In this document: one piece after another, positions 6,813 through 24,000 of the stretch
Position numbering within the stretch: the first letter of the stretch is position 1
Layout of the letters: each line of letters starts with the position of its first letter
Assembly: GCF_008011855.1 (NCBI RefSeq)
Contig: NZ_VOUX01000024.1
Span: 46,160 to 70,159, forward strand
Direction of reading: 5' to 3'
Source of the DNA: Serratia bockelmannii
GTDB lineage: Bacteria > Pseudomonadota > Gammaproteobacteria > Enterobacterales > Enterobacteriaceae
Length of the DNA: 24,000 nucleotides
The notes under the pieces: generated by a model
Databases searched by the model: none
What the model was told of the DNA's origin: nothing
What the model saw: only the letters and a program-made list of their open reading frames with translations
Position numbers and translations under genes: made by a program

Positions 6813-6909
6813 ACCTGTTCCTGGTCTTACCTCCCTGTTCATCCTTTGAACATTGATAACTTTTCTACCATTGGCTATGTTACGAACATATTTAGCCAAG
6901 GAAACGGGT

Positions 6910-7694: not shown

Positions 7695-7943
7695 CGCCAG
7701 CTATGCAGTGTTCAGTCAGGGATATACCAGGCGTATCAATCGTCGGCATGTCGGACACTGAGCAGCAAGAAATTTATTATGCCGTATTTCATTTGTGGGC
7801 ATACGACCTGCTGGGCACCATCCAGTGGCGTGGCGTGGCCTACCACTCGCGTGTCGCAGCTGCAGGCAGGTGACCTCAACTGGTTAAATAATGCTCTTAA
7901 CGTACAAAATTTTCCGATCTCCAAACTGACCCCTATGTTGAAA

Positions 7944-7976
7944 AGGCCGCTGAGAAAAATTCTCCCGCAGCGGCCT
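7944..7976. terminator. Rho-independent terminator (reads well on the minus strand, after the 8007-8813 gene)
   Basis: The stem AGGCCGCTG / CAGCGGCCT (9 bp) has a 15-nt loop. It is flanked by AAAA on the left and CTTT on the right, so the minus-strand transcript ends hairpin + UUUU. Confidence 0.6.
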
Positions 7977-8006
7977 CTTTAGCATAACGTCATTATGCGA
8001 ACCATA

Positions 8007-8813: not shown

Positions 8814-9025
8814 GAGATTTCCGTTTTTTAAATTTAGGATTGTGTATAGTAACTATTTTTAACTCATTCTAATCTATAAAAACTCAATGTTACTTGTAAT
8901 CTAGCTGTTACGAGTATGCCGCGAAGCGGTTCGATGGCCTACATCAGTTAGTATTATTCTTGATGCCTCCTATTAGGTGAGCGAGGTTATCCGATATCTC
9001 TTTAGTCATGACTGTAATTCCAGTT

Positions 9026-9967
9026 TTAACCTCGTTGAAGCTGTTTGTTTTTTATAAGTATTTCGCGATGAATCTGTGCTTTTTTGCGCTCGATTTGTAA
9101 CGATAGCTGATGAATAGTATTTGGTAGTTCTTTTGTTAGGAATGCATGATTATTTTCTTCAAATTCTCCTGATTCGGATAATTCAGAGTGTATGAGTTCA
9201 AGCATCTTGATGATATCAATTTGATGTTCTACTATAAATCTACGATAAGCTGTTTTCCCTACTTCTCTAACGAACAGATCTAGAAACTTACGGCCGTTAC
9301 GAAATTCTTCAATGAAAAACTTTTCAATGATAAATGCAACCACAGGAACCATCAATGCCTTTATACGGGCAACTTCTTGCACTACATTTCTTTTAACCCC
9401 TTGAGTGACGTTGTGAAACCTTGATGCCATACAAGTAATGGGATTCAAAACCCTGACTTTATCATGAGCTGTATATTGAAATTTCTCCATGGGTAAATGA
9501 AAAACTTCTGTATTGATAATAAGTTTTCTGCCGTTAAAATCAGAGGGAGTAAGATATGAAGCGCTCGACAGGACATCCACAATGTTGGGTTCTTCAATGT
9601 GACGGTCATCGAAAATTTCTTTATTGACAAACTTTTTATGAAAATATGTTTTAATTTTCCCGTCTTTTATGTTTTTTAACGGCAGGATTGCCAGTGAAGG
9701 TGGTGAGCCATCATTATAATTTACGGGTACATCTAATACTGATGATATTACTGAAATGTCGATATTCCGTGCTGTCACATCAATATCATTGGAAGTAATA
9801 TAATCAATAGGGGGATGTTCGGAGTAAATATCCTTGTACCATACCACCCAGTAGTGCACAGCCTGACCGCCTACGGTCACGATTGGCGACGTGAATTTAT
9901 CACCATGCTTCATTAGTTCAGCGTTAAGGATATAGAGTTGGTCCAACGGACTCATATGTTCTGACAT
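9026..9967 (-). CDS. Hypothetical 313-aa protein, possibly with a minimal nucleotidyltransferase fold (weak)
   Basis: Strong SD (AAGGTGG, 7-nt spacer). VTVGGQAVHYW...ITSNDIDVTA resembles the G[GS]...DxD motif of AbiEii/MNT-type nucleotidyltransferases, though the spacing is longer than canonical. The C-terminal half is helical and charged. Confidence 0.6.
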   Translation of the reverse strand: MSEHMSPLDQLYILNAELMKHGDKFTSPIVTVGGQAVHYWVVWYKDIYSEHPPIDYITSNDIDVTARNIDISVISSVLDVPVNYNDGSPPSLAILPLKNIKDGKIKTYFHKKFVNKEIFDDRHIEEPNIVDVLSSASYLTPSDFNGRKLIINTEVFHLPMEKFQYTAHDKVRVLNPITCMASRFHNVTQGVKRNVVQEVARIKALMVPVVAFIIEKFFIEEFRNGRKFLDLFVREVGKTAYRRFIVEHQIDIIKMLELIHSELSESGEFEENNHAFLTKELPNTIHQLSLQIERKKAQIHREILIKNKQLQRG

Positions 9968-10506: not shown

Positions 10507-12756
10507 TTAACGGCTTCTACTGATCGACTGTTCGACCTGTTTAACCTGTTCCGCGAACTTGCCGGCCTGCTTGATGTGTTCAATACGCGCTAGCACTTTC
10601 TGAGTCTCGCCCAGATATTCAGTCATATTAGTCAGTGGCAGCGCTTGATAATACCCATGCGCGCTACTGAAGCCATGATACCGGAGCTGCAGCAGCAGGC
10701 TCAGAAAAGCCTCATCCTTCTTGACTTGGCGATCGACCCATTTCCGTACTGCCTGGATCCCGCTAATATCACGCCATGCCCAGATATATCTATTCAGCAG
10801 GGGAAAGGCCGCCAACTGTTTGGTGATGGCCGGGCTGTTCAGTCTCTTCCCCATGGTTTTCTGTAAGATGACGACGTTACTCCGCTCCATCCACTCTTCC
10901 AGCTGATGGCCCGTTCTGTCTCCGACTATCCCATGTTGCCACAGCAGGTGACGGACATACTCAGCGCCCCAGTACCAGGCTTTCCCAAGCTGGAGTTGCG
11001 CAGTCAGGAACTTATTGGTAGATGTGACATCCTCACGTAGCATTCGTTGGATTAGCCGATCGGCCACGCTGTAGGTATCCAGGTCCTGCAGCTCAAACCA
11101 CTCGTTGTCTTGCCGATAGCGTTTCACCATGTCATCCCCGTTGTCGAAGAAGAACTGCAGCAGACCCTGGCACTCGGCCAGCGTTCTGGAATCAATCTGG
11201 GGGGATGTTAGCTCGGCCAGCATGTGCTCAAACCAGGTGCGGGAAGATAAGTTCTTTTTTCTCTGGATATGACCGAGCAGGCGTTGTGCCAGTTCCTGCT
11301 GCTTTTCAGGCTGGTCATGCTGGCCGGCGAGCGCGAAGATTTGGTCAAAATCTTCCGGTAACAGGATATTTTGTGGCGCGCAGAAGGCGAAGTAGTAACG
11401 CCAGTATGCCTGGCTGCCAAGCCGCTTCCCTGCTGTGAGCCAAGCACTTTCCTGCGGACCGGTGCTTACAAAGAGTTTATCGGGATGCACTGTCAGTCCA
11501 TCTAAGATCCCCGGGACCCATTCACTCAGCTCCGTGATGGAATGCGCTTTGGCCGGGAAATACCGCATCAGGTGTTGCTTAAGGTTGTCTGTCAGGACTT
11601 TCTGCTCCTCTTTACTGACATGGCCATCTCCGGTCTGCACCACGTTCCGTTCCGACAGGTATTCTTCCACCCAGTCATACAGACCCGAATTTGTCGTGCG
11701 GAGCAGCTGCAGGAAGCACAGATCGGGGAAATACACATAGTCCCGTATGCCCGCATAACGGAACCGTAGTGCATTTAGAACGGTCTGGACTTCCCGGGGC
11801 GATTTCAGCATGGCGCCATAAATATTCGCGACTGCCGTCAGGTCATCCAGTATGCCCTTCTCCGGGGGAGATTTATTCACCGTTTGGTATAACTCAATGG
11901 CATCATCACGAAATTGCTGGCGCAGCGCAAAGGATTCCGGGCGCGGCAGTCCGAATGAGATCTGGACAATTTTCTGCAGGTACAGGCTCCCGTCGGTGAC
12001 GCCCAGCCCCTGGCTGATGGCCTGTGACAGCACCGCCTTGTCATAACAGAGCAGGTAGCGGAAGCGGGGAAAATCCGCGACCGACTTCACCAGTCGGATC
12101 ACCTCCACGGCCTGGGCCGGTTCGAGGCGATCGAGATCGTCGAGCAGGATAATGAAGCTCAGATCCAGCTCTTCGATTTTCTGAGCAATCTCGGCGCGCA
12201 TGTCGGCCGTGGTTTTTTCCTTTTCTTTCAGCCAGTGCGAGTCTGCCACGGCGTTCAGTGCGCCGCTGGCATCGGGGACACCGGGAATGACCGCGGCGAT
12301 CTGAGCGACAGGCGACAGATTCCGGGCGGTGGCCCGGGTGTAGTCCATCAGCGTCTTGGCGGTACCGGTCAGCGCTTTTTTCTTTTTGAGGGCTGCCCGT
12401 TCCTTCGCTGAAAGCCGACGTTCTTCTTCCTCGGCAATGATGCCAGCTACCGGAAGCAGTAAGGACGCCACCAGAGGCGTATCACTGCCATCGAGCCAGG
12501 GGGAAATATTCAGCACGAAGGTTCGCGCTTCCTGTTGTTTATCCAGCGCCGTGCGCAGCAGATTAAGGAGGCTGGTTTTCCCCGTCCCCCAGGCGCCTTC
12601 GATACCGATCACGGCACTGCCCTCCCGGCCGATCTCCTTAATGGCGCGGGCCAACTCGGTGGCAATGTGGGTGAAACCATAGCGGTCTTCGTCGTTATTG
12701 CGGATGGCGCGATCGGGATGTTGCCCCTGGCGGTTTTCTTGCGGTGAATGCGTCAT
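10507..12756 (-). CDS. KAP-family P-loop NTPase (749 aa)
   Basis: It has the N-terminal DRYGF motif, Walker A IGIEGAWGTGKTSLLNLL, Walker B FIILLDDLDRLEP about 150 aa later, and the long helical C-terminal region typical of KAP NTPases. The segments in the inter-Walker insert (PLVASLLLPVAGIIA and VAQIAAVIPGV) are too short or too polar to call transmembrane helices with confidence. Confidence 0.85.
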   Translation of the reverse strand: MTHSPQENRQGQHPDRAIRNNDEDRYGFTHIATELARAIKEIGREGSAVIGIEGAWGTGKTSLLNLLRTALDKQQEARTFVLNISPWLDGSDTPLVASLLLPVAGIIAEEEERRLSAKERAALKKKKALTGTAKTLMDYTRATARNLSPVAQIAAVIPGVPDASGALNAVADSHWLKEKEKTTADMRAEIAQKIEELDLSFIILLDDLDRLEPAQAVEVIRLVKSVADFPRFRYLLCYDKAVLSQAISQGLGVTDGSLYLQKIVQISFGLPRPESFALRQQFRDDAIELYQTVNKSPPEKGILDDLTAVANIYGAMLKSPREVQTVLNALRFRYAGIRDYVYFPDLCFLQLLRTTNSGLYDWVEEYLSERNVVQTGDGHVSKEEQKVLTDNLKQHLMRYFPAKAHSITELSEWVPGILDGLTVHPDKLFVSTGPQESAWLTAGKRLGSQAYWRYYFAFCAPQNILLPEDFDQIFALAGQHDQPEKQQELAQRLLGHIQRKKNLSSRTWFEHMLAELTSPQIDSRTLAECQGLLQFFFDNGDDMVKRYRQDNEWFELQDLDTYSVADRLIQRMLREDVTSTNKFLTAQLQLGKAWYWGAEYVRHLLWQHGIVGDRTGHQLEEWMERSNVVILQKTMGKRLNSPAITKQLAAFPLLNRYIWAWRDISGIQAVRKWVDRQVKKDEAFLSLLLQLRYHGFSSAHGYYQALPLTNMTEYLGETQKVLARIEHIKQAGKFAEQVKQVEQSISRSR

Positions 12757-12758
12757 GG

Positions 12759-13829
12759 TTACAGATCCCCGTACAGTGCGGCGAGCTCGGCCAGCGCCGC
12801 GGCTGTGGACGGGTGCTCCAGCTGCGCCAGCAGCTCGGCCTCGAGCGCGGTGAAGGTGTCCGGCGCCAGCCGCAGCCGCAAATTCGGCAGCACCAGACCG
12901 ATGTCGCCGCTCTCCGGCACATGCAGCGAGACATGCCGCCCCTGATAGCTGCGGGTGCGATCGCCGTCCTGACGCGCGCGCAGCAGGCGGCGCAGTTCGG
13001 CGAACACCGGCCAGCCGAAGGTCGACTGGAAGACCGCGCCGCTGATGTGCAGGGACAGGAACGGCGGCAGTCCGTCGTCGGCGCCCGGATAGGCGCCCTG
13101 ACCGGCGACGATCTCCACCGTGGCGCTGAGCTCGCCGGCGGCGGCGATCAGCTGCTGGCGCTCCACGAAGGGCACGGTCAGCGCCAGGTACTCGGCCAGC
13201 GCCGGATCGTCGGCGCGCTGCGCGGCGACCGCCAGCGGGAAGATCGCCCGCAGCCGCACCGGGGTGCAGGCGCGGGCCAGCGCCTCGTCGCTGAAGTCAT
13301 CGAGGTTCAGCACGCCGCTGGCCAGCGGTCGGGCGAAGAACTCGGCGCTGCCGGCCGGCGGGGTGCATGTGGCCGTAAAGCGGTCACGCAGCGCCTGCAG
13401 CCAGTCCTCGCCGCGCAGGCCGAAGGTGCGCCGGTAATAGTGGGGATCGACATCGAGCCCGCCGCCCACCGCCGTCTCCAGCAGCGCATCGGTGATCAGC
13501 AGCAGCGCGGACAGCGGCGCCCGGTTGACCGGCCCGCGGCCATCGCGATAGGCGATCTGCGCCTGGCTGAACAGCCAGCGCAGTTCGGCGCGGCTCAGCG
13601 CCTGGCCGTCGACGGTTTCCGCGCGCACGACCTTGCGGTACAGCTGGCCCAGGGTGGTGTACGGCGCCGCGCAGAGCGCGCGATATTCGTCGCCGGCGAC
13701 CGAAGTGGCCAGCGTTTGCTGCAGCAGACGTTCTGCCAGGGTGTTGACCGGCACGGCTTCGGCGGCGGCGCGGTTTTTCAGGGCGGCGATCAGGGATTTC
13801 GGAAAGCGGAGGTTCAGCTGGCTGAGCAT
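12759..13829 (-). CDS. 356-aa protein with a ribbon-helix-helix-like N-terminus; the rest is unassigned (intact copy of a gene repeated three times)
   Basis: SD AGGA with a 6-nt spacer. The N-terminus MLSQLNLRFPKSLIAALKNRAAAEAVPVNTLAERLLQQ fits the beta-strand/helix/helix pattern of Arc/CopG-type RHH domains. The stop lies 2 nt before the KAP ATG. The gene is extremely GC-rich, so long mirror ORFs appear on the plus strand; their R/G/Q/A-rich products look non-biological. Confidence 0.7.
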   Translation of the reverse strand: MLSQLNLRFPKSLIAALKNRAAAEAVPVNTLAERLLQQTLATSVAGDEYRALCAAPYTTLGQLYRKVVRAETVDGQALSRAELRWLFSQAQIAYRDGRGPVNRAPLSALLLITDALLETAVGGGLDVDPHYYRRTFGLRGEDWLQALRDRFTATCTPPAGSAEFFARPLASGVLNLDDFSDEALARACTPVRLRAIFPLAVAAQRADDPALAEYLALTVPFVERQQLIAAAGELSATVEIVAGQGAYPGADDGLPPFLSLHISGAVFQSTFGWPVFAELRRLLRARQDGDRTRSYQGRHVSLHVPESGDIGLVLPNLRLRLAPDTFTALEAELLAQLEHPSTAAALAELAALYGDL

Positions 13830-14018
13830 GGCGGTGTCCTGCTGTCATAGGAATTTATTGTGATGATAGCAACATCCTATAAAGCAGAAATGGAAATTAC
13901 AATGCTTTACCCAATGCAGCTAGCTTCCTTTTACTATGGTTGCAACAATGAACCATTGCTAACCATTTGGCTAGTCTGCTAGTGAAGCTGAGTGCGGCGG
14001 TCGGCGTTTTTGCGTCGC

Positions 14019-14045
14019 AGATCCGAAAACCCCCAGTTCCGGATC
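14019..14045. repeat. Copy 1 of the shared intergenic element (core AGATCCGAAAACCCC + N5 + CCGGAT)
   Basis: The 15-nt core at 14019-14033 is identical to those at 21553-21567 and 23916-23930. GATCCG and CGGATC (14040-14045) can pair. It lies 190 nt upstream of the minus-strand RHH-356aa/KAP operon. Confidence 0.7.
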
Positions 14046-14163
14046 TTCCTGGGACTGATTCGGTTGTACTCGATCACAACGCCTGTTGTACCCGCCTTAG
14101 TACAAACGAAACTGTCCTCCATGGGGTTGTCCCCAGCAGACACGGTCTATACAGTCGATTTAA

Positions 14164-14179
14164 CTGTGCATTTGTACAG
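14164..14179. promoter_or_regulatory. LexA (SOS) box of the colicin promoter
   Basis: CTGTGCATTTGTACAG fits CTGT-N8-ACAG exactly at the invariant positions. It lies 22 nt upstream of the colicin ATG. SOS control is the rule for colicin operons. Confidence 0.7.
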
Positions 14180-14201
14180 TATTTATCAACGGAGATAGCC
14201 C

Positions 14202-15944
14202 ATGCTTTTTAATGCAAATACCAAATTTACTTATCATTCACCGGATGATGGCGACAGCATGACGGTGACCGGCGACCGTCCCAGCCAACCTGGCCCTACT
14301 GGCCCCACAGGTAACGGGGGCGACAGCGGCGGTGGCAATACCGGCACGACCAATAAGTTGATCATGAAGCCCGGTGATGTGCATACCTCCCGCTATGGCA
14401 AGGTCATTATCAATGCCCAGGGTCAGCCAACGATGAACGGGGTCGTCATGAACTATGATAATTCATCGGTTGTGGATGATGGTGCGGGCGGTGCAACCCG
14501 CGTACTGAATTCCATCATCGATGCTGCCAAACCGCCGGCCAGCCAGAATTTTGGCAATAACGCCAGCATTTCGGATGGGCGCTATGCCGGCAAAAACCCG
14601 GCGGCGGACTATACCCTTCCGCTGGCTATCTTTACGGCGGTCCGTCGCGGCCAAATTCCACCTGGCTTTTGGCTTGACAACAACAAGGTCATGACCGAGA
14701 TCACGCAAAAATACGAGATCAACGGCGGCGGCAAAGGGAATGATCGCACCGGGTACAGAAAATCCAATGTGGCAGTGCCTGGCCTGACTAATGCTTATCA
14801 GCAGTGGCAAAAAGAACAGCAAGACGCCGCCAAGCGTAATGCCGAAGAAGAAGCCCGACGTAAGGCGGCCGAAGAGGCAAAACGTAAGGCGGAAGAAGAA
14901 GCCAAACGTAAAGCGGCAGAAGCGGAAGCCAAACGGCGCGCCGAGGAGGAAGCGAAACGCAAACAGGCTGAATGGGAAGCGACGCATAACATCGATGCGG
15001 CGAAAAAGAATGTTCAGCAGGCAGAAAGCCGGTTAAACACTGCGAAGCAAAAACGCGACGATCTTCAACGCAGGACCTACCGTACTCAGACCAGCCTCAG
15101 TTCCGCAATCATAATGCGAGACCGTACGAAAGAGGTGATCGATAAACATCTCCCAGGCCCTTCAATCATCCCTTCGGATCAAGAAAACAGACAACAACTC
15201 CTGGATGCGCTGAAACAGAGTGAGGAGGAGGTGAACAAACTGCGGGCCCAGGTCGATGCGGCAAACCGCGATCTCAACCTCGCCAATCAGGAGTTTGACA
15301 ATGCCTCGAAAAACCTGAATGCCGCCCGTGATAACCTGCAGCGGCTGGAGAAAGCGGAAGCGGATCGTAAGGCCGAAGAGGCCAGGAAGAAGGAAGAGGA
15401 GGCGATGAAAGACGCCATCAAGACGACGGCGGATTTTTACAAGGAACTGACGGAGAAATTTGGCGAGCAGTCCGCCAAGGTGGCCAAAGAGCTGGCCGAT
15501 GCGGCCAAGGGGAAAACGCTCAAAAATGCGGAGGAGGCGCTGAAGGCGTTTGAGAAGTACAAGGACGTGCTGAACAAGAAATTCAGCGTCGCCGATCGCG
15601 AAGCGGTGGCTAAAGCGCTGGAGTCGGTGCGCCGAGAGCATATCGCCCAGAATCTTGTCAAGTTTAGCAAGGCGTTCAACTACACGAGCAGAGCCATTGA
15701 TTTCTACGATGTCGTCATCGTCGAGCTGCCCAAAGCGATACGAACGCAGAACTTCAGACCTGTTTTCGTTAAAGTGGAGACACTTGCGGCAGGCGCGGCC
15801 GCCACGACGCTGACGGCGTTTGCCTTCAGCGTGATGTTGGGCACGCCACTGGGTCTTTTCGGTTTTGCCATTATCATGACTTTGGTCAGCGTGCTGGTTA
15901 ATGAAAAGCTCATGGAGAAGGTCAACAAAGCCGTCGGTATTTAA
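14202..15944 (+). CDS. Pore-forming bacteriocin (colicin/klebicin) with a colicin Ia/Ib-type channel domain
   Basis: The C-terminal ~180 aa (nt ~15405-15941) are colinear with the colicin Ia pore domain. Examples are KDAIKTTADFYKELTEKFGEQSAKVAKELA..GKTLKNAEEALKAFEKYKDVLNKKF versus Ia KDAINFTTEFLKSVSEKYGAKAEQLAREMA..GKKIRNVEEALKTYEKYRADINKKI. The hydrophobic hairpin AAGAAATTLTAFAFSVMLGTPLGLFGFAIIMTLVSVLV and the ending EKVNKAVGI (Ia: EKANKFWGI) also match. The N-terminus carries DDGDSMTVTG (aa 15-24), resembling the colicin B TonB box region YGDTMVVWP. A Gly-rich stretch follows. SD GGAG is present. Confidence 0.9.
   Translation: MLFNANTKFTYHSPDDGDSMTVTGDRPSQPGPTGPTGNGGDSGGGNTGTTNKLIMKPGDVHTSRYGKVIINAQGQPTMNGVVMNYDNSSVVDDGAGGATRVLNSIIDAAKPPASQNFGNNASISDGRYAGKNPAADYTLPLAIFTAVRRGQIPPGFWLDNNKVMTEITQKYEINGGGKGNDRTGYRKSNVAVPGLTNAYQQWQKEQQDAAKRNAEEEARRKAAEEAKRKAEEEAKRKAAEAEAKRRAEEEAKRKQAEWEATHNIDAAKKNVQQAESRLNTAKQKRDDLQRRTYRTQTSLSSAIIMRDRTKEVIDKHLPGPSIIPSDQENRQQLLDALKQSEEEVNKLRAQVDAANRDLNLANQEFDNASKNLNAARDNLQRLEKAEADRKAEEARKKEEEAMKDAIKTTADFYKELTEKFGEQSAKVAKELADAAKGKTLKNAEEALKAFEKYKDVLNKKFSVADREAVAKALESVRREHIAQNLVKFSKAFNYTSRAIDFYDVVIVELPKAIRTQNFRPVFVKVETLAAGAAATTLTAFAFSVMLGTPLGLFGFAIIMTLVSVLVNEKLMEKVNKAVGI
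14823..14969 (+). repeat. Imperfect 24-bp (8-codon) tandem repeats inside the colicin gene
   Basis: They encode DAAKRNAEEEARRKAAEEAKRKAEEEAKRKAAEAEAKRRAEEEAKRKQA, a highly charged Ala/Glu/Lys/Arg helix reminiscent of TolA domain II-type repeats. The repeats also create long shadow ORFs on the opposite strand. Confidence 0.8.
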
Positions 15945-15951
15945 CGTCAGC

Positions 15952-15971
15952 AAGGCCGCTTACGCGGCCTT
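15952..15971. terminator. Bidirectional rho-independent terminator between the colicin and immunity genes
   Basis: AAGGCCGC-TTAC-GCGGCCTT forms an 8-bp GC-rich stem. It is followed by TTTATTT on the plus strand. The hairpin overlaps the last codons of the converging immunity gene. Confidence 0.7.
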
Positions 15972-16298
15972 TTTATTTCTGAGGAACAGGGCAAGCAGAT
16001 ACAGGATGCCCAGCGGCAGGGCCATGATAAAACAGAACACATAATACAGAACCAGTAGCCCATTTTTGCCAATGGTATCGGCGAACAACCCGCGGTGCCA
16101 GAATGCTTCATTGGTGAAGCGCAGGGCGGCCGTTTCAATGCCCTTTTTGGCACAGGGATAGAGCAAAAAGCTCAGAAAGGCAATGACCAGCGCGAGAGGG
16201 ATGTTCACCCTGTCCTGGAAGGAATGGATGTAATAGAGCGCGCTAAAAAAGCAGGCTACTCCCCAAACCTGACTTTTCCAATAATACGCTTTGGTCAT
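15960..16298 (-). CDS. Colicin Ia/Ib-type immunity protein (inner-membrane)
   Basis: From the ATG at 16298 (SD GGGAGG) the product is 112 aa. LYPCAKKGIETAALRFTNEAFWHRGLFADTIGKNGLLVLYYVFCFIMALPLGILYLL aligns with colicin Ia immunity LYPVAKWYIEDTALKFTRPDFWNSGFFADTPGKMGLLAVYTFTVFILSLPLSMIYIL (from memory). Its orientation opposite to the colicin gene is usual for pore-former immunity genes. Confidence 0.85.
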   Translation of the reverse strand: MTKAYYWKSQVWGVACFFSALYYIHSFQDRVNIPLALVIAFLSFLLYPCAKKGIETAALRFTNEAFWHRGLFADTIGKNGLLVLYYVFCFIMALPLGILYLLALFLRNKKAA

Positions 16299-16365
16299 TC
16301 GCGCCTCCCTGGACATCGGCCTTTTTCATCTTTCGAACTTGCCATCATATCGGCTTTGCGGGTGA

Positions 16366-16737
16366 TCAGCGAAACGGAACCCCGTTGCCATAGACCGAGT
16401 TGGTTGGTTTGGTGTTGAAGTTAAAGGTAAATTCGCGATCCTTCACCGGTTGATCGCGTTCAAAGCGCCAGCTTTTCATGGCGGTCAACACCGCCTCGTC
16501 AAAGACACCGGCAGGCCTCGCCTGCACAATACGCACATGCCTGACCGTGCCGTCGTGTTCGATATCGTATTTCACCTTGACGACGCCACTGGTGCTTTTC
16601 GACAGGGCCTGTTCAGGATAAACAGGGGCGGTTTTGATGATGGCGTGGGGTGCCGGTGTGGCACCGAGCGCCAGCGCCGGCGTTAGGCACAGTAACAGCA
16701 GAGCAGAAAATGTAGATTTTCTCATGTCGTGATCCAT
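16366..16737 (-). CDS. Secreted protein consisting of a signal peptide plus a TonB C-terminal domain only
   Basis: MRKSTFSALLLLCLTPALALGA is a Sec-type signal peptide; the real start may be the ATG at 16725. The rest, APVYPEQALSKSTSGVVKVKYDIEHDGTVRHVRIVQARPAGVFDEAVLTAMKSWRFE, aligns with E. coli TonB [57 protein letters not shown]. There is no N-terminal membrane anchor and no Pro-rich spacer. Confidence 0.8.
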   Translation of the reverse strand: MDHDMRKSTFSALLLLCLTPALALGATPAPHAIIKTAPVYPEQALSKSTSGVVKVKYDIEHDGTVRHVRIVQARPAGVFDEAVLTAMKSWRFERDQPVKDREFTFNFNTKPTNSVYGNGVPFR

Positions 16738-16828
16738 TGGTTAAAAATAAGCGGTTACTACAAGATCGCGCCTCGGCGATCGCTCCTAACTATAGGGTAA
16801 ATCTGACAATATTGCGTTATTGCGGCGA

Positions 16829-17410
16829 TCACAGATCGCCGTACAGCGCGGCGAGATCGGCCAGCAGCGCCGCCGCCGGGTGCTCCAGCTGCGTCAGCAG
16901 ATAGGCCTCGAGCGGGGGTGAAAGTGTCCGGCGCCAGCCGCAGCCGCAAATTCGGCAACACCAGACCGAGGTCGCTGCTCTCCGGCACATATAGCGAGAC
17001 GTGCCGTCCCTGATAGCTGCGGGTGAGATCGCCGTGCTGATGCGCGCGCAGCAGGCGGCGAAGCTCGGCGAACACCGGCCAGCTGAAGGTCGACTGGAAG
17101 ACAGCGCCGCGGATATGCAGGGACAGGAACGGCGGCAGGCCGTCGTCGGTGCCCGGATAGGCGCCCTGCCCGGAGAGGATCTCCACCGCGGCACTGAGCT
17201 CGCCGGCGGCGGCGATCAGCTGCAGGCTTTCCACGAAGGGTGCGGTCAGCACCAGGTAATCGGCCATCGCCGGATCGTCGGCGCGCTGCGCAGCGACCGC
17301 CCGCGGGAAGGTCGCCCGCAGCCGCACCGGGGTGCAGGCTCGGGCCAGCGCCTCGTCGCTGAAGTCATCGAGGTTCAGCACGCCGCTGGCCAGCGGCCGG
17401 GCGAAGAGGG
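16829..17410 (-). pseudogene. 5'-truncated, frameshifted second copy of the GC-rich 356-aa gene (3' ~580 bp)
   Basis: It aligns base-for-base with 12759-13340, identical at roughly nine positions in ten by eye. An extra G near 16915 (GAGCGGGGGTGAAAG versus GAGCGCGGTGAAGG) splits the reading frame between track ORFs 16758..17381 and 16829..17194. There is also a one-codon deletion near the 3' end. Homology stops abruptly at ~17408, where AT-rich DNA begins. The RHH-encoding 5' part is missing. Confidence 0.85.
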
Positions 17411-17570
17411 GGCCGCTTGGAAAACGGAAAATATCCTACGTTAAGCCTTTTTTTGAGCGGTTATGACAGGCTGCTGCGAGCGAGGAACGGACATTGCTAA
17501 CAGCATTCTGTGTGAATCAACAGGGAGCAGGTCAGTATAATTATATAAGTCTTTTCCCTTAGATCTTGGG

Positions 17571-17599
17571 TTGATTTGTTGAAGTTTCACGAAAATAAT
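17571..17599 (+). promoter_or_regulatory. Candidate sigma70 promoter of the GIY-YIG gene
   Basis: TTGATT - 17 nt - AATAAT, about 27 nt upstream of the ATG at 17626. The context is AT-rich, so chance matches are likely. Confidence 0.3.
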
Positions 17600-17625
17600 G
17601 ATAAACAAAAAAAGTAGCAATAATA

Positions 17626-18570
17626 ATGGATTTAATTATGGAATGGAGATTTTTAGGTTCTATATCAGAGGCTAGGAAATCTGGCTGTAGTGGAGTTTAT
17701 CTTATTGTCCATAAAGGACTTTTCAATCGTGTGGTTTACGTTGGGGTAAGTTGTAATGTAGGTAGAAGGATAAACGAACATTACGACGGTTACCTGAGAG
17801 GAAACCGAACAATTTACGCCGCGGGTCACGATGATGATGTGTATCGCTTCATGTCAGCTTATAAAATTCATAACCACACTAAGCACTATCAAGCCTTGGC
17901 GAAGGATTATAAGATATGGGCATCTACAACATTATATTCTGATTTGCCGAAAAACATGCTAGCAAAAAACCAAACCTTTGATACTGACTGGCAGAGCATT
18001 GCATTAGAAAAATATATTCCTCAACTGGTAGTATGGGCCCTTCCAATGGCTGGTTACTGTTATTCAAATGCAAGCAGAATTGAAAGTGTAATTCAATCAA
18101 AGCTCATTAAATCTTTTTATTTGAGAGGGTTTTTTAATATAAAGCAACTAAGCATATTGGGTAAAATTGAATTCCCGCATATGGAAAAGGTCAAGGTTTT
18201 TATTATTGATGCACCTGATTTAGATCCGGCATCCCAACTTATTTTTAGTAACCTGTATAACAAGGAAACGGATGGAAATTTCTGTAAAGAGTTCCGTTCA
18301 CAGTTTAAAAACGAGATTTTTCAGAGGGAAAGCGAAATTCAGAGAAAGCGAACTATCAGGGAGCATAAGGTATCTCTTTATGAAAATTTTGGCAAACCCT
18401 GGACTTTAAAGGAAATGGAAAAACTTAGAGTCATGCTTGTCGATTTTGATTTGTCCCCGACAGAAATATCTGAATACCTAGGAAGAGAACCTCGCTCTAT
18501 CTCTAAAAAAATAAGCGAAAATGATAAAGTTACTAATTATAAATGGAGAGAGAGCGTCGGCTGGTTGTGA
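17626..18570 (+). CDS. GIY-YIG nuclease-domain protein with a C-terminal Myb/SANT-like helix-turn-helix
   Basis: The N-terminus GVYLIVHKGLFNRVVYVGVSCNVGRRINEH fits the GIY-x(9-11)-YIG...R...H/E motif. The C-terminus KPWTLKEMEKLRVMLVDFDLSPTEISEYLGREPRSISKK fits the W..E...L.....G....I pattern of Myb/SANT-like HTH domains. The gene is low in GC. The start could also be the ATG at 17638. Confidence 0.6.
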   Translation: MDLIMEWRFLGSISEARKSGCSGVYLIVHKGLFNRVVYVGVSCNVGRRINEHYDGYLRGNRTIYAAGHDDDVYRFMSAYKIHNHTKHYQALAKDYKIWASTTLYSDLPKNMLAKNQTFDTDWQSIALEKYIPQLVVWALPMAGYCYSNASRIESVIQSKLIKSFYLRGFFNIKQLSILGKIEFPHMEKVKVFIIDAPDLDPASQLIFSNLYNKETDGNFCKEFRSQFKNEIFQRESEIQRKRTIREHKVSLYENFGKPWTLKEMEKLRVMLVDFDLSPTEISEYLGREPRSISKKISENDKVTNYKWRESVGWL

Positions 18571-18586
18571 CGTTACGTTTTGATTG

Positions 18587-18610
18587 AAAAAGCCGCATTT
18601 GCGGCTTTTT
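18587..18610. terminator. Bidirectional rho-independent terminator between converging genes
   Basis: AAAAAGCCGC-ATTT-GCGGCTTTTT is a perfect hairpin with an A-run on one side and a T-run on the other. Confidence 0.75.
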
Positions 18611-18636
18611 CTGTATGCTCAGTAAACATGATGGCA

Positions 18637-21258
18637 TCAGGTTTTACTGAGCCATGAGCCGTAAACTTCCCTACGCCGTTCGAAAGCTTCCCGTCCGCCC
18701 TCCATCACCGAAATAATGTGCTGTTGTACATGAGGAGCATCCACACCTCCACCGGCAGCCTGGATCCTGCCGCTGGCATATTCACAGGCACAGACATTCT
18801 CAGCGTCACCCAGAACCGGGATGTTGGCATTGTGAGTAGCAAAGATAAACTGGGTGCGGGGTTTCATCGTTCGGATGATTTTAATCACGTCGTCATAAAT
18901 CGTCTGATTGTCCAAGTCATCTTCGGGCTGATCGATGATCACCACATCATTATCCTGCTGGTTCAGGACAAACAGCATTAATGCGGAGGCGCGCTGACCC
19001 AGCGAGTGTTGTTCCAGTGGTTTGCCACGGAATTCAATGGTGTAGATATTCGGGATCTGCCAGACGATCAGCGATTCTATCTGCTGTTCCAGATACACTC
19101 CGAACGTCTCTGCAGAGCCGTTGATAATCCCCTGGAGTTTATCCCTGTTCAGCCAGAGTTCGCCAAAATCGCTGAAGCTGTCAGCTACGGTCTGGTAGGT
19201 ACTTTCCCGCAACCGGCTGCCAGTAAACGTTTCTTTCAGAACTGATTGCATGGCTTTTTTGTCGCTTGCAAAGGCCGGCACGATCTTCAGGGGCGAATCT
19301 GCCCGGTTGATTGTGGCCAGCACGGCTTCAATTTCGTTATACTCTTCCCTCCAGAGTTCAGCCAACCGGCTCAGCGCTTCTGTCAGGCTCTTCTCCTGTA
19401 ACGCTTGACTGGTTTCAGCCCGGGTTAACTCATCTATTTTCTGTTCCGCAGTTTCCAGCTCAGTCTTCAGCTTCAGAAAGTCGGCCGGATCGGCTTTTTC
19501 CACCCCGACCCGCCGCAACTCTTCTGCAAGGCCCCGCTCTATTTCGGCAAATTCCTCCGTCAGCGCCTGCTTTTTCTGCTGGAAGGCCTGCTGCTTAGTA
19601 TCGAGTTCTGTGAGGAGCTGGCGGGCGCCGTCGACGATGGTGTTCAGGGAGTTGAGATGGGTCGTGAAGCGATCATATCCCTCACGATAGTCATCGATCT
19701 CGGCCTGGTTATGCGCTGATTCATGTTTCTGCTCCTGCTTCAGCTCGTCCAGTGTCTCCCTGATATCGTCCTGCAGACTGTCCAGCGCTTGGGTTGCCTG
19801 GGCAGAGGTATTGCTGAGATAGCGCTCATCCCTCCCGAAGGTGGTCTGCAGTTCCAGTTTTTCTTCCATGCCATGCTGGGCATAAAAGCGCAGGCGGAAA
19901 TGCGCATCCGCCTTTTTTGCCTGCCATTCTGAGAGTGCTTCTCCCGATTTTTTCAGGCGACGAAGCAGGCGTAACCTGTCGAGCACGACTGTATTCTGCT
20001 GCCGGATTTTTTCTCGCACGGGAACCAGACGCTCACCGACCAGCTTTTCAATCAGATCGTGTTCAAACCCTGCGCCGGTATTGGACAGATCTTTCTGGCC
20101 AAAATACACTGGCTTGTGCAGAACCGTTTCCCGGAGCGCGACCCCGCGTCTGGCCTGGCCGTCAAAAATGACCTGCGGTTCCTGGCCGAAAATGCGGGTT
20201 ATCTGATATGCCCGCCCGAGACGGCACACGGCGTCGACGGTAATTTTCCCCCCGCTTTTGAGTAAATTACTTATCAGATTTTCTTTGTAGTCGCGGTCAG
20301 AGGCCTTCTCGCCAAACGGAATGTCCAGGGCATAGCGGATCCCTTCAAGTATGGAGGATTTTCCGCTGCCACGGATCCCAATCAGGGTGTTCAGCTCCGG
20401 AGATAATTTCACCACGGTTCCGCCGAGCGAACCGGCTCCCTCGAATGCTATCTGACGGATATGGCTGTGCATAAGGGCCGGTTTTTCCCCGCTGACGCGG
20501 TGCGGGAAATCTTGCAGAGCAAATCGGACAGCTTCAAAATTGTAATCACCCAGCTTCAGATAGCTGGCGACTTTTCTGGCGCCGATGTCATCCAGCGTTT
20601 TGGCATCGCATCCCTGAACTTCTGCAGGATAGCGCCTACCGAGAACGCCGTGAATTTTGACCCGCAGGTCGTGGGTCATCACCTTCTGAAATCCCATCAC
20701 GCGCCGGCGGACAAGCTCATTATCAAAAAGCTCCACGATCCGACCAGGGCTCAGTCCGCCCCATAATCCGTTAGGAGCTTCCACGTGGGCAAACACAATG
20801 AAGTAATCCCGTTCATACCGGTCAAGGCGCTGGATGGTCTGAGTGATATTTTCTGTTGAACGGGCATTTTCGTTCTCAAAATTATCAACGCCCGCAAACG
20901 TGGCCGTCAGGAAACTTTCAATATGATTCGTCTGCTGCGGGTTGATAAACCAGTCATCGGCAAACACCACAAGCGTGTGCACGCCGGCCTGACCATCATT
21001 AACAGACAGTTCCACGCCGGGAAGCAGTTCAGTGCCTTCGCGGCGCGCGGCTTTGCGTAATGCCTTAAACTCTCCGGGATCGAATTTATTGTGGTTGGTG
21101 ATCACGCCTACTCCCACTCCAGCCGCTTTTAGGGCACAGACGTAGTCGCGAATATATCTGTCGGGTTCCCCGGCATAGCGAAATTCTTTATCTGCACGGG
21201 TATGAAGATGAAAATCCACCTTGACCCAGCAGGATCCATTCTCAAATACGGGATACAT
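18637..21258 (-). CDS. PHP phosphoesterase domain fused to an SMC/RecF-like ABC ATPase with a long coiled-coil insert (PplA-type architecture)
   Basis: The PHP motifs appear in order: VDFHLHTRAD, ITNHN, GVELS, HTLVVF, FAHVE. Walker A is at aa ~295-301 (IGIRGSGKSSILEGIRYAL). About 400 aa of heptad-rich Q/E/L/R sequence follow. Next come SLGQRASALMLF, Walker B VVIIDQPEDDLD and the H-loop FATHNANIPV. Confidence 0.8.
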   Translation of the reverse strand: MYPVFENGSCWVKVDFHLHTRADKEFRYAGEPDRYIRDYVCALKAAGVGVGVITNHNKFDPGEFKALRKAARREGTELLPGVELSVNDGQAGVHTLVVFADDWFINPQQTNHIESFLTATFAGVDNFENENARSTENITQTIQRLDRYERDYFIVFAHVEAPNGLWGGLSPGRIVELFDNELVRRRVMGFQKVMTHDLRVKIHGVLGRRYPAEVQGCDAKTLDDIGARKVASYLKLGDYNFEAVRFALQDFPHRVSGEKPALMHSHIRQIAFEGAGSLGGTVVKLSPELNTLIGIRGSGKSSILEGIRYALDIPFGEKASDRDYKENLISNLLKSGGKITVDAVCRLGRAYQITRIFGQEPQVIFDGQARRGVALRETVLHKPVYFGQKDLSNTGAGFEHDLIEKLVGERLVPVREKIRQQNTVVLDRLRLLRRLKKSGEALSEWQAKKADAHFRLRFYAQHGMEEKLELQTTFGRDERYLSNTSAQATQALDSLQDDIRETLDELKQEQKHESAHNQAEIDDYREGYDRFTTHLNSLNTIVDGARQLLTELDTKQQAFQQKKQALTEEFAEIERGLAEELRRVGVEKADPADFLKLKTELETAEQKIDELTRAETSQALQEKSLTEALSRLAELWREEYNEIEAVLATINRADSPLKIVPAFASDKKAMQSVLKETFTGSRLRESTYQTVADSFSDFGELWLNRDKLQGIINGSAETFGVYLEQQIESLIVWQIPNIYTIEFRGKPLEQHSLGQRASALMLFVLNQQDNDVVIIDQPEDDLDNQTIYDDVIKIIRTMKPRTQFIFATHNANIPVLGDAENVCACEYASGRIQAAGGGVDAPHVQQHIISVMEGGREAFERRREVYGSWLSKT

Positions 21259-21504
21259 TCCTTGATACCTTTATTCAGTCGCTGATGAATGCCCGGAGGC
21301 TCCGCATAATTTCATTTATATTAGGGCGATCCCGTTCCGACTTCATTTTATTTCCGTCACCAGTTAATAAATATTTGATCTGAACCAGAACCGCATTCAG
21401 ATTGCGGATGAGAGCGCGCGGCAACATCTTCAGATGTTTCTTTTTTGGCATTAGCGTCTGGTTATTATTGCATTTATAACAATAGTGCTGAAATGGCAAT
21501 AATA

Positions 21505-21592
21505 ATTATAAATTATTGCATTATTAGCATTGGCTCCTTTCTTTTCTCACACAGATCCGAAAACCCCTAAAGCCGGATGCTAACTATCTGAG
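21505..21592. repeat. Copy 2 of the shared intergenic element (extended ~85-bp form)
   Basis: TATTGCATTATTAGCA...TCCTTTCTTTTCTCACACAGATCCGAAAACCCCTAAAGCCGGATGCTAACTATCTGAG aligns with copy 3 over about 80 bp. The core is at 21553-21567, 295 nt upstream of the PHP-ATPase ATG. Confidence 0.7.
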
Positions 21593-21693
21593 GTGAAGAT
21601 GACTATGTGTTTACGCTGGCTGCCAAGCAACCTGAATGGTTTATCGTGATGTGCTCCGGCATACGTAAATCCTACACCGGAGCTAAGGAGGGA

Positions 21694-22626
21694 TTACTCC
21701 TGAAGGTGCAGCCCCTTCAGATTCGTTTCAAAGTAATCAACATAAATTCGCTCATTTTTGGGCTTCATTATCAGCTGAATACCGTTGGGAACGGGCGGAC
21801 ATGAGGCCCGGTAGGCGAACATCTCATCCTGGATATTCCGGAGCGTATAACCCAGTTGCTCTTCTTCTGCCCTTCCGGACACCCTGATGCCGGATAATTC
21901 CTTCTCAACGTACTTTTTCAGCTTCTCGCTTCTTTTCATACTGCTGCGATTATCCAGAAACTGAAGCAAGAAATAGCGGATGACCGGCAGTGTGAACACC
22001 ACATAGAATAGGATCTCATTCAGCCCGGATTTCATGGCGATGCCGTAAACAAGCATCGCGACAGGCGAGACAATAAAAGCTGAAAGATAAAATACGTGCA
22101 GCACCTCCCTGAGCGATTTGTCCCAGCCGAGGTTTTTTCCGTGGCACAGGAGCGCCATTACGGCCAGCGGCGCGTCATACACTTTACTGACGTACCACCC
22201 CTCTTCGCCAAATCGCTTTCGTGCTTTTTCCGGACTGTCCCTGAAATAGGCAGCTGCCCGGATGATGTCATCCCGTGGGATCTCCTCCACCTTCAGGTCA
22301 TTGCGCCGGATGCCCAGTACCCGGCAGTCGTACATTTCCTGGATTGAGGCTGCCTTCCTGCGCAGTGCCGCGATGTGTCCGCTGATGATAATGTTAAAAG
22401 TAAGCACCAGGAGTCCATACAACCCCAGCAGTGAAGACAGCAGCTCTGAATCGACAAAGCCCCGGCTCCGGTTGTATACGGTAACGAGCGAAAGCAGGAA
22501 CGGCACGATGATGCTGAAGATAAAATTCAGCCTGTTCCAGTTTTTTACCCTGTCGTAAACACGGGCCTGCGCATACAGTAAATCCAGGTTTTCTCTGGTC
22601 GACTGGTTAGTGTAAATGGCATTCAT
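21694..22626 (-). CDS. CBASS effector: four-transmembrane (S-4TM-like) protein
   Basis: 310 aa with two hydrophobic hairpins. The first is LNFIFSIIVPFLLSLVTVY / LLSSLLGLYGLLVLTFNIIISG. The second is VLHVFYLSAFIVSPVAMLVYGIAM / ILFYVVFTLPVIRYFLLQFL. A soluble region separates them. The ATG lies 3 nt after the cyclase stop. This is the arrangement described for SMODS-associated 4TM effectors. Confidence 0.7.
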   Translation of the reverse strand: MNAIYTNQSTRENLDLLYAQARVYDRVKNWNRLNFIFSIIVPFLLSLVTVYNRSRGFVDSELLSSLLGLYGLLVLTFNIIISGHIAALRRKAASIQEMYDCRVLGIRRNDLKVEEIPRDDIIRAAAYFRDSPEKARKRFGEEGWYVSKVYDAPLAVMALLCHGKNLGWDKSLREVLHVFYLSAFIVSPVAMLVYGIAMKSGLNEILFYVVFTLPVIRYFLLQFLDNRSSMKRSEKLKKYVEKELSGIRVSGRAEEEQLGYTLRNIQDEMFAYRASCPPVPNGIQLIMKPKNERIYVDYFETNLKGLHLQE

Positions 22627-22629
22627 GGT

Positions 22630-23625
22630 TCACCCGTAAACAGGAAAGAACGGCCCGAACACATCGCGCCATTTATTGATGGATTTTTCATACTCTTTGT
22701 TCTCCTCAAACCATCTCGCCTCCGATACCTTCTGCGCATCGAGATAACATCTGTCCGAAATCGCCTTACGCGCCTCGGCTGAAAGAGAGTTGATATCTCC
22801 CTGTATGCCTTTGGGATCGTTGACGGAGAACTGTACGTACAGACCGAGATGGCGGAAAAGCGCTTCCAGCTCCATATCGACAAACGATGAGCAGGCTGCC
22901 CTGCCGGCGTAATAGTCCAGAATCAGCGTCTCCAGCAGGTAGGAACTCATGGAGGGCATCGTCGGACGCCGCTGCCAGTACTTGACTGCCCTGATGACAT
23001 TCAGCACATTGCCGTCATTCTGCACATTGACAGTTGTGACTCTGTCCCTGTCTTTGCGGGGGTCGGTAAACTTCCAGTGGCCTTTGCCGTCGGGGATCAG
23101 ATAGTAAGTCCGTCCAAAGGCATCTTCGCTGGTAATAAAGCAGGGTACGATGTCAAAATTCCAGTCCTTGCTGACCAGTTTCAGCGTGACGGCTTCCTGG
23201 TTACGCCTGATATCAGCCTGGGCGTACTGGGCAATGTCCTGCAGGCGGTTTTTAAAGGCATTCAGAATTCTGACGGAGCAGATAGTGTCAGCTCCGGAAT
23301 GCCGATACCCGTGCAGGCGCGACCCCTCGCCGGAAGAGGTCAGAGTGATCCGGTCACTCAGAACGTTATAGGTGGCACTCTGCGCGGATAAGCCGAACAT
23401 CAGATCGATATCGTCCAGAGGACGGATTTTGGTTCTTCTGGCAAAGGAACCAAAGGCAATATGGATCGCTGGATAACTCACCGGAAATTTATCGTCCTTC
23501 TCAAAATCATTCATCTTACCGATAAGCCAGTCGCGACTTGCACGCGCGTCATCGGTATCTGCCTTTTTGAGATTCACGGAATCTTTCATAAATTCGTTAA
23601 AGGCAGCTATTACTGTGGTCGCCAT
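22630..23625 (-). CDS. cGAS/DncV-like nucleotidyltransferase (CD-NTase, SMODS family) of a type I CBASS
   Basis: The catalytic motifs are GSFARRTKIRPLDDIDLM (GS...DxD) and the third acidic residue in WNFDIVPCF. The N-terminus is AAFNEFMKDSVNL....ARASRDWL. The downstream YLIPDG..W..TDPRKD...V and IRAVKYWQRR are also typical. SD AAGGA is present. Confidence 0.8.
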   Translation of the reverse strand: MATTVIAAFNEFMKDSVNLKKADTDDARASRDWLIGKMNDFEKDDKFPVSYPAIHIAFGSFARRTKIRPLDDIDLMFGLSAQSATYNVLSDRITLTSSGEGSRLHGYRHSGADTICSVRILNAFKNRLQDIAQYAQADIRRNQEAVTLKLVSKDWNFDIVPCFITSEDAFGRTYYLIPDGKGHWKFTDPRKDRDRVTTVNVQNDGNVLNVIRAVKYWQRRPTMPSMSSYLLETLILDYYAGRAACSSFVDMELEALFRHLGLYVQFSVNDPKGIQGDINSLSAEARKAISDRCYLDAQKVSEARWFEENKEYEKSINKWRDVFGPFFPVYG

Positions 23626-23865
23626 GTTCAGTCCTTTAATTATTTATTGCAAAAGGCGCAGGGCTCTGACGTACATCTGCACACTCCAGTGCCCTGAAAG
23701 GGTCGAGACAGTTTATTCTTAGTTCCGCAAGTTCACTACCGTCTCGCTTTCTACAAGGCCTTAAAATTTACATGGGGAAATAAGAGCCTCGCTCTTTTAT
23801 TGAATGTAATGCAAATATTTTCAATTTTTAATGCTAAATAAGCAATAATGCGATTATGTTTAAAA

Positions 23866-23955
23866 CCAATAATTAGTATTGCATTATAAGCACAAATCCT
23901 TCTGCATTCCTCCTGAGATCCGAAAACCCCAATAATCGGAAATGCCGTACCTGAG
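23866..23955. repeat. Copy 3 of the shared intergenic element (extended form)
   Basis: TATTGCATTATAAGCA...TCCTTCTGCATTCCTCCTGAGATCCGAAAACCCCAATAATCGGAAATGCCGTACCTGAG. The core is at 23916-23930, 291 nt upstream of the CD-NTase ATG. Confidence 0.7.
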
Positions 23956-24000
23956 CCGTCAGGCTGACCGGATGATATAGTGGATTCTCGAACCGGAACG

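Follow-up and report, generated by a model that had tools for sequence, protein, structure and literature searches.

The repeated core and its plasmid

A 24,000-nt stretch of Serratia bockelmannii DNA (contig NZ_VOUX01000024.1, positions 46,160–70,159; hereafter the window) carries the same 15-nt sequence, AGATCCGAAAACCCC, upstream of three unrelated minus-strand defence operons, and the question is what one element is doing in front of such different genes. A first-pass annotation, made from the sequence, had offered two readings: a common operator or leader through which the operons are co-regulated, or a cassette junction used in the exchange of modules. The core is identified here as part of rfsF-type sites, the targets of the plasmid recombinase ResD, and these sites very probably mark recombination seams between neighbouring modules.

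Exact searching of the window placed the core at 14019–14033, 21553–21567 and 23916–23930, all on the plus strand as first described, with no further match in the window even at up to two mismatches; 0.05 copies would be expected, and three were reached in none of 100 dinucleotide shuffles. The accompanying measurements were also reproduced, namely the partner motif that follows 5 nt past each core (CCGGAT in copies 1 and 2, TCGGAA in copy 3) and the distances of 190, 295 and 291 nt from the core to the minus-strand start codons at 13829, 21258 and 23625. The likeness of copies 2 and 3 over about 80 bp holds for the 80 nt left of the core, where 54 of 80 positions are identical (shuffles give 44.8 ± 2.8, with a maximum of 51), but neither farther left nor in the right flank. 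The near coincidence of 291 and 295 nt is thus real as a spacing, but the shared sequence is limited to about 80 nt beside the core. Copies 2 and 3 have the motif CTGAG at an equal offset from the site start, +35 (21588–21592 and 23951–23955); it sits in unrelated right-flank classes, the 3' end of the CBASS cassette (cyclic oligonucleotide-based antiphage signalling system) and the HEPN cassette, and may be due to chance.

The window corresponds, at 100% identity, to positions 3129–27128 of the Serratia marcescens plasmid p14BL03_1 (AP028474.1, 90.7 kb), which carries MPF_I transfer genes, and it is located between the replication gene and the maintenance/leading region. The exact core occurs in the whole plasmid at these three places only, as scanned on both strands, while a fourth copy with two mismatches to the core, AGATCCGAAAACTCATTGTTTCGGATCA, lies at plasmid position 29171, equivalent to window position 26043 and just past the window end. 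A position-weight scan of the plasmid, built from related sites, found four sites only, all on the plus strand within 12 kb, in direct order and pointing towards resD. A tRNA scan of the window found none, and a literature search for the core as a string returned unrelated primers only.

Identity with rfsF, the target of ResD

ResD, the D protein, is a tyrosine recombinase of F-like and IncI1-like plasmids, and rfsF is where it resolves and fuses plasmids. The pattern published for this site, AGATCCGNAA-N8-TTNCGGATCT (also written AGATCCGNAANNNNNNNNTTNCGGATCT), consists of 10-bp inverted repeats around an 8-bp spacer within which the exchange happens, and at this 28-bp site pOX38 fuses reversibly with a Klebsiella virulence plasmid (Xu et al. 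2021). The rfsF of R64 was placed at nt 43,620 by an IncI1 plasmid study, while in the pEC958 paper the RepFIA region starts at F position 45,922, its first part holding the rfsF sites as ResD targets. Whole gene-set swaps and gains of foreign segments have been attributed to rfsF by IncI1 and IncR studies, and the presence of two or three rfsF sites in some plasmids has already been published, with "significance to be investigated".

The four copies in p14BL03_1 form a family of 28–29 nt, composed of a 10-bp arm, 8 bp and a 10-bp inverted arm. As aligned with rfsF, the 15-nt core takes in the whole 10-bp left arm AGATCCGAAA and, of the eight spacer base pairs, the first five (ACCCC), and both parts are identical in the rfsF of F and of R64. 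In R64 (NC_005014), AGATCCGAAAACCCCAAGTTACGGATCT begins exactly at nt 43,620, upstream of a site-specific integrase gene, and in the F plasmid the same 28-mer begins at 45,922, between pifC and ccdA-ccdB-resD. The initial statement that the element matches no known type was therefore wrong. The arm geometry is that of a tyrosine-recombinase core site, and the identity follows from the literature on rfsF, an element known since the 1980s whose role as a boundary of exchanged segments is already published.

Site 1 (14019–14046, plus strand) is a complete rfsF-type site, with the left arm AGATCCGAAA at 14019–14028, the spacer ACCCCCAG at 14029–14036 and the right arm TTCCGGATCT at 14037–14046, and shows no mismatch to the 28-bp consensus. 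Site 4, read as AGATCCGAAA ACTCATTG TTTCGGATCA, is a near-perfect inverted repeat with one mismatch to the consensus and lies 1.4 kb upstream of resD. Site 2 (21553–21580, plus strand) combines the left arm AGATCCGAAA with the spacer ACCCCTAA and the right arm AGCCGGATGC, while site 3 (23916–23943, plus strand) has a perfect left arm, the spacer ACCCCAAT and the right arm AATCGGAAAT. Sites 2 and 3 both fail the 28-bp pattern, as their right arms each carry four mismatches to TTNCGGATCT, and on the evidence of their arms they are rfsF-derived asymmetric sites, not canonical rfsF. The resD gene itself (plasmid positions 30559–31368) is found near the sites, downstream of them and in the same orientation, and its product is 81% identical to F ResD over the whole length and contains a Phage_integrase domain.

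The link between site and recombinase gene extends well beyond this plasmid. A consensus scan of 185,579 species genomes, one genome per species, gave 92 matching stretches, among which 37 enterobacterial ones were judged to hold genuine sites; most matches outside Enterobacterales are terminator-like hairpins that lie between runs of A and T and were treated as chance. A resD homologue is present inside the stretch for 23 of the 37 genuine Enterobacterales sites, and in all 23 it lies downstream in the same orientation. The genuine sites share one polarity, comprising a pyrimidine-rich left flank, AGATCCGAAA, a variable spacer, TTCCGGATCT and often a conserved right flank. Among about 100 fetched loci, every exact match to the 15-mer proved to be an rfsF-type site.

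Homology switches and module reassortment

The evidence for seams comes from BLAST comparisons that were not anchored on the sites. The Escherichia coli plasmid pJJ1887-5 holds the window blocks Ppl/TrlF (18587–21560), CBASS (21569–23926) and HEPN (from 23878), and every shared block terminates in or beside a site. The block order in pJJ1887-5 is vapBC, TrlF, HEPN-DUF3800, AAA-ATPase, CBASS and rfsF, and that in p14BL03_1 is TrlF, CBASS, HEPN and rfsF. Window positions 18587–21560 are equivalent to positions 6004–8978 of the extracted pJJ1887-5 locus, where TrlF follows a degenerate site and precedes HEPN, not CBASS.

Two Serratia plasmids show further rearrangements of the same blocks. In S. 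marcescens pSMBC31-93K, the pif block (ending at window position 14031) is joined straight to the CBASS block (21552–23943) through a hybrid site, in which the left flank is that of site 1 and the right arm that of site 2. For the 7.5-kb segment of the window that runs from colicin to TrlF, this hybrid is the "empty site". The CBASS block of pSMBC31-93K is 98.1% identical to that of the window, against 90.5% for the adjacent pif block, which indicates separate histories of the two. The S. nevei plasmid pCUVET18-1371.2 has the same backbone, with the colicin block (from window position 14018) next to a different left neighbour, while its pif block meets an AAA-ATPase block through another site. 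Site 1 contains the block ends of the BLAST comparisons with pSMBC31-93K and pCUVET18, at 14031, 14025 and 14029.

Similar arrays are found in other plasmids. The HEPN-DUF3800 block, taken from the right arm of its first site up to the left arm of the site that follows, turns up again at 99.3% identity, and in Klebsiella pneumoniae kp10 it stands directly against an F-type full rfsF and ccdAB-resD; the kp10 array has three sites, of which only the resD-proximal one is complete. Enterobacter p_ECC8276_LBHALD contains five directly oriented sites in 10 kb, again with only the one proximal to the resD operon complete, and these separate RES, nucleotide-binding/DUF4238, CBASS and AAA-ATPase blocks. 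Beyond the pif module, F and R64 each carry a second site, which is weak-armed. In K. pneumoniae pWP4-S18-CRE-04_1, a site beside CBASS (26975–27002 of the extracted locus) joins two left arms in head-to-head orientation (AGATCCGGAA ATTGTAAT TTTCGGATCT) across a nearly palindromic spacer, as expected after inversion or wrong-way exchange, and is located in a region rich in insertion sequences.

Flanks were classified for 22 sites from nine plasmids, grouped by 70 nt on the left and 70 nt on the right; the left flanks fell into 13 classes and the right flanks into 11, and these are combined in many ways. The CBASS left flank and the Serratia pifC left flank are each partnered with four different right classes, while the HEPN and CBASS right flanks are each partnered with three left classes; the right arm moves with the right flank, and the pyrimidine tract moves with the left flank. 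Site 1 is the junction of a PifC-type left flank with a colicin right flank. The left flank of site 2 (21473–21552, plus strand), which is AT-rich with TATTGCATTAT followed by a pyrimidine tract, is the promoter-side right end of the Ppl/TrlF cassette and is conserved upstream of TrlF in pJJ1887-5; on its other side, site 2 has the right arm and flank that also adjoin the CBASS 3' end in pJJ1887-5, pSMBC31-93K, p_ECC8276 and pWP4. The left flank of site 3 (23836–23915, plus strand) is the promoter-side right end of the CBASS cassette, conserved upstream of CBASS in pJJ1887-5, pSMBC31-93K, pHS4_2 and pMRSN346595, and the right arm and right flank of site 3 are part of the HEPN (pEK499_p136) cassette, which is also the case in pJJ1887-5, p418 and kp10.

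The coincidence of block ends with sites was quantified by comparing the 14-kb array of pJJ1887-5 with all plasmids, using 60 records spread across the 5,000 best-scoring ones. Of 31 distinct internal end points, 11 fall within 15 nt of the five pJJ1887-5 sites, against 0.64 expected (binomial P = 2e-11). With homology switching inside the 28-bp sites, the second reading of the first-pass annotation, a cassette junction used in module exchange, is supported.

Probable recombination seams and ResD

In the proposed explanation, which we hold with high but not full confidence, each site would be a seam between two modules, one on the left, which includes the pyrimidine tract and the promoter region of the leftward operon, and one on the right, which includes the right arm. 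Such seams would have been made by ResD-type strand exchange inside the spacer: plasmids would fuse at rfsF, and resolution or deletion would then take place at full or secondary sites. Repeated exchanges of this kind may have stacked PifA/PifC, colicin, Ppl/TrlF, CBASS and HEPN to the left of the resD-proximal site. The differing spacers of the complete sites 1 and 4 (ACCCCCAG and ACTCATTG) may keep ResD from deleting the modules between them, and the weak right arms of the internal sites may likewise protect the stack. Beside the observed identity, number and orientation of the sites, their link to resD and the switching of homology inside them, we infer from sequence comparison that ResD made these particular junctions and that the weak arms stabilise them. 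Our confidence in any specific order of events is lower than that in the seams.

Several points weigh against this explanation. The argument is comparative and relies on homology switches inside sites, and the right arms of sites 2 and 3 depart from the published consensus. A changepoint analysis put 26 of 26 switches inside the 28 bp, mostly in the spacer, but is partly circular, since the pairs were picked by flank identity, and is given little weight. No near-isogenic relative differing by one cassette was found, the best relatives being 92% identical over at most 44% of the window. Neutral scars should decay in both arms, but most internal sites have a perfect left arm, which hints at a further function. 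Short-homology RecA recombination within the conserved arm could formally also have produced the junctions.

Asymmetry of the sites and a possible cassette platform

Several regularities of the sites are at odds with a model of pure scars. In 26 distinct full sites the arms are invariant, and the mirror positions 8 and 21 are non-complementary (A opposite C) in 25 of the 26. The weak right arm starts with A in 19 of 20 sites (21571 and 23934 in the window), and full sites have T at this position; the A-first weak right arms span about ten independent right-flank classes. On this comparison the A-first weak sites look like a distinct site class and not like the outcome of random decay.

The flanks are regular as well. 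The pyrimidine fraction of the 20 nt left of the site averages 0.79 in full sites, 0.74 in weak sites and 0.50 in the background, and it reaches at least 0.75 in 72% of full and 60% of weak sites, compared with 2.8% of the background. Such tracts, for example at 21533–21552 and 23896–23915 of the window, are present whatever the left module, while site 1 and its Serratia pifC-type relatives are without one. Of 27 annotated sites, counted by hand from annotation tables, 24 have a minus-strand gene on the left whose 5' end faces the site, usually at 120–300 nt, and the right neighbour is either the start of a plus-strand gene or the 3' end of a minus-strand operon. Taken together, this suggests a functional class of asymmetric sites, serving as cassette sites, as ResD operators or as both, and these regularities underlie the two readings considered next, a cassette platform and a common operator.

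The first of these, which we regard as tentative and somewhat less probable than its opposite, is that ResD and rfsF form an integron-like cassette platform on enterobacterial plasmids, beyond dimer resolution, in which the weak sites stay recombination-competent. One complete site would lie beside resD with asymmetric cassette sites farther out, perhaps recombining by single-strand exchange. Defence, colicin and toxin-antitoxin cassettes, each ending in a leftward promoter beside the left arm, would be captured, reordered and passed among IncF, IncI-like and IncR plasmids, and ResD bound at the left arms might also set cassette expression.

Alternative explanations

A common operator, at which ResD binds the core, or PifC binds the GCAAT-rich flanks, and thereby co-regulates the leftward defence operons, appears unlikely. 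According to the title of Lane et al. (1986), the D protein (ResD) is a transcriptional repressor as well as a resolvase, and an operator would fit both the predominance of minus-strand 5' ends on the left and the left arms that stay perfect where the right arms are weak. The motifs GCAATA and ATTGCA are also commoner in left flanks (22 and 19 of 55) than in right flanks (8 and 3), but AT-richness alone may account for these counts. Against an operator, the module boundary is the constant and the promoter geometry is not, since the distance from site to ATG varies over 120–300 nt, the right neighbour can be a gene start or a 3' end, and the left flanks differ between modules in their 13 classes. 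The same type of site also precedes the resD operon. Consensus promoter matches around the sites in a scan for sigma-70 promoters and terminators are at chance (13 against 12.9 expected) and uninformative. The operator or leader favoured first is thus not supported as the main explanation, as no RNA family was matched and the asymmetry is conserved without covariation, while ResD could still have a side role as a repressor.

An RNA element, in the form of a 5' leader hairpin or riboswitch shared by minus- or plus-strand transcripts, is very improbable. Every copy does contain a short inverted repeat (GATCCG...CGGATC), but copies 2 and 3 could pair over about 5 bp only, no Rfam match at threshold occurs in the window, and the flanks on each side are unrelated between copies. 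The covariation check on the 26 full sites gave conserved asymmetry instead, the mismatch at mirror positions 8 and 21 being retained with no compensatory change, which is typical of protein-binding arms and speaks against a hairpin in either RNA or DNA.

Least credible of all is a Frpo/ssi single-strand promoter of the leading region, or the end of a transposon or miniature inverted-repeat transposable element (MITE): the sites do share the orientation of the plus-strand genes running towards oriT, and GGGGTTTTCGG has a superficial likeness to a Tn3-type end (GGGG... on the minus strand), but the core 9- and 10-mers searched are absent from the published supplementary files, including the Frpo/ssi table, the single-stranded DNA fold downstream of site 4 is unremarkable (z = -1.8), and genuine Tn3-like 38-bp ends elsewhere in the window look different. 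Frpo/ssi promoters are hairpins of about 300 nt that mimic -35 and -10 elements, and Tn3-family ends are 38-bp repeats that start with GGGG and occur as an inverted pair. A Tn3-family terminal repeat or MITE was rejected, as all four copies have one orientation with no inverted partner on the other strand.

Modules between the sites

The gene calls of the first-pass annotation (RHH-356aa/KAP, PHP-ATPase and CD-NTase) agree with Pfam and PADLOC, and the genes are those of PifA with a PifC-like partner, a Ppl/TrlF-type PHP-ATPase and a CBASS pair. To the left of site 1, the minus strand of 10507–13829 encodes PifA (KAP NTPase, 749 aa; PADLOC PifA E = 3e-291, Pfam KAP_NTPase) and a 356-aa PifC-like protein, and the arrangement of pif module and site 1 is the same as that of pifC and rfsF in F. 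An imperfect palindrome, GGTTGCAACAATGAACCATTGCTAACC, is located at 13938–13964, between the start of the PifC-like gene and site 1, and is a candidate pifO-like operator of PifC.

The colicin block (14047–17407) has four parts identified with Pfam: a pore-forming colicin (14202–15944, plus strand), a colicin immunity protein (15960–16316, minus strand), a TonB_C protein (16366–16737, minus strand; Pfam TonB_C E = 5e-14) and, at the right end, a duplicated pifC fragment (16758–17381, minus strand). The small TonB C-terminal-domain protein adjoins the colicin immunity gene, and the same trio occurs in the S. nevei plasmid. The duplicated fragment is a 207-aa open reading frame that repeats the C-terminal part of the 356-aa PifC-like protein (12759–13400, minus strand), and related fragments are also found in the S. 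nevei plasmid; it suggests that the colicin block entered by a second route or via a pifC-pifC cointegrate.

The Ppl/TrlF cassette (18587–21552, minus strand) carries a PHP and ATPase gene at 18637–21258, identified as Ppl by PADLOC and matching AAA_21/SMC_N in Pfam. It is followed by the CBASS cassette (21581–23915, minus strand; Pfam S_4TM and SMODS, PADLOC cyclase and 4TM effector), which contains the S-4TM effector (21694–22626, minus strand) and the CD-NTase (22630–23625, minus strand). The HEPN cassette starts at 23944–24000 on the plus strand, with the HEPN pEK499_p136 gene beginning 11 nt past the window end; the right flank of site 3, which is this start of the cassette, comes after vapBC in p418 and kp10 and after TrlF in pJJ1887-5.

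The window also contains a Shedu SduA homologue (8007–8813, minus strand; PADLOC E = 2e-108) and an unannotated 313-aa neighbour (9026–9967, minus strand) in a low-GC segment. No rfsF-type site bounds the Shedu segment, so not all defence genes of the island are part of the ResD array. Two 38-bp sequences of the Tn3-family terminal-repeat type are present at 17408–17445 (plus strand) and 7896–7933 (minus strand), one being GGGGGCCGCTTGGAAAACGGAAAATATCCTACGTTAAG and the other 30/38 identical to it. Their GGGG ends face each other, and they therefore cannot be the two ends of one transposon; the duplicated pifC fragment is cut short by the first, and low-GC segments (Shedu and a GIY-YIG-like gene) adjoin both.

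Comparison with known systems

The closest known systems are the rfsF/ResD pairs of F, R64/ColIb-P9, IncR and pLVPK-type plasmids, with which p14BL03_1 shares the sequence of site 1, a ResD (81% identical to that of F) and a site that bounds variable gene sets, as well as the neighbours of the site, which are pifC to its left and the resD operon to its right. Unlike these, p14BL03_1 has four sites in an array instead of one, two of them with weak, A-first right arms, and the modules between the sites are defence, colicin and toxin cassettes.

Integrons recombine attC sites, imperfect palindromes of 57–141 bp, as folded single strands by means of the IntI integrase, with a Pc promoter beside attI. 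They resemble the present system in having a tyrosine recombinase gene beside a complete site, a directly oriented site array and cassettes in varied orders. The sites described here, however, are 28-bp duplex-type sites of 10-8-10 geometry and not folded attC hairpins, the recombinase is a ResD orthologue, and the cassettes are multi-gene units with their own promoters and divergent or leftward genes, with no common Pc promoter. For these reasons of length, geometry and recombinase, the sites were not classed as attC or attI.

The pdif modules of Acinetobacter plasmids are enclosed by 11-6-11 XerC/XerD sites in alternating orientation. As in p14BL03_1, plasmid accessory modules are bounded there by short 28-bp tyrosine-recombinase sites in varied contexts, but ResD is plasmid-encoded, unlike the host XerCD, and the ResD sites have 10-8-10 arms of unrelated sequence, all in direct orientation, so that an identity with Xer/dif sites was rejected. 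The CUP repeats of IncN plasmids such as pKM101 measure hundreds of bp and carry a promoter, and both regulation and recombination have been discussed as their role. They too are repeated intergenic elements upstream of unrelated accessory genes near the maintenance/leading region, whereas the conserved part here is a recombinase arm of 10–15 bp with differing flanks.

Implications for plasmid defence islands

In the searchable literature, no description was found of an asymmetric rfsF-type array with a conserved left arm and pyrimidine tract, or of an association of rfsF arrays with defence, colicin and toxin cassettes across IncF, IncI-like and IncR plasmids, an absence that is not proof. 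What had been taken for a new regulatory element is removed from the list of such elements, as the motif is the ResD site rfsF. In the unanchored comparisons, blocks of anti-phage systems (PifA, Ppl/TrlF, CBASS, HEPN and others), colicins and toxin-antitoxin pairs are discrete, bounded by rfsF-type sites and variable in order between plasmids, and they recur in plasmids of E. coli, Klebsiella, Enterobacter and Serratia; the IncF, IncI and IncR-type plasmids concerned are clinically important. ResD acting at rfsF-type sites thereby offers a concrete and testable mechanism for the assembly and exchange of plasmid defence islands. If the weak sites are indeed active, ResD would drive the flow of accessory genes alongside integrons and IS26.

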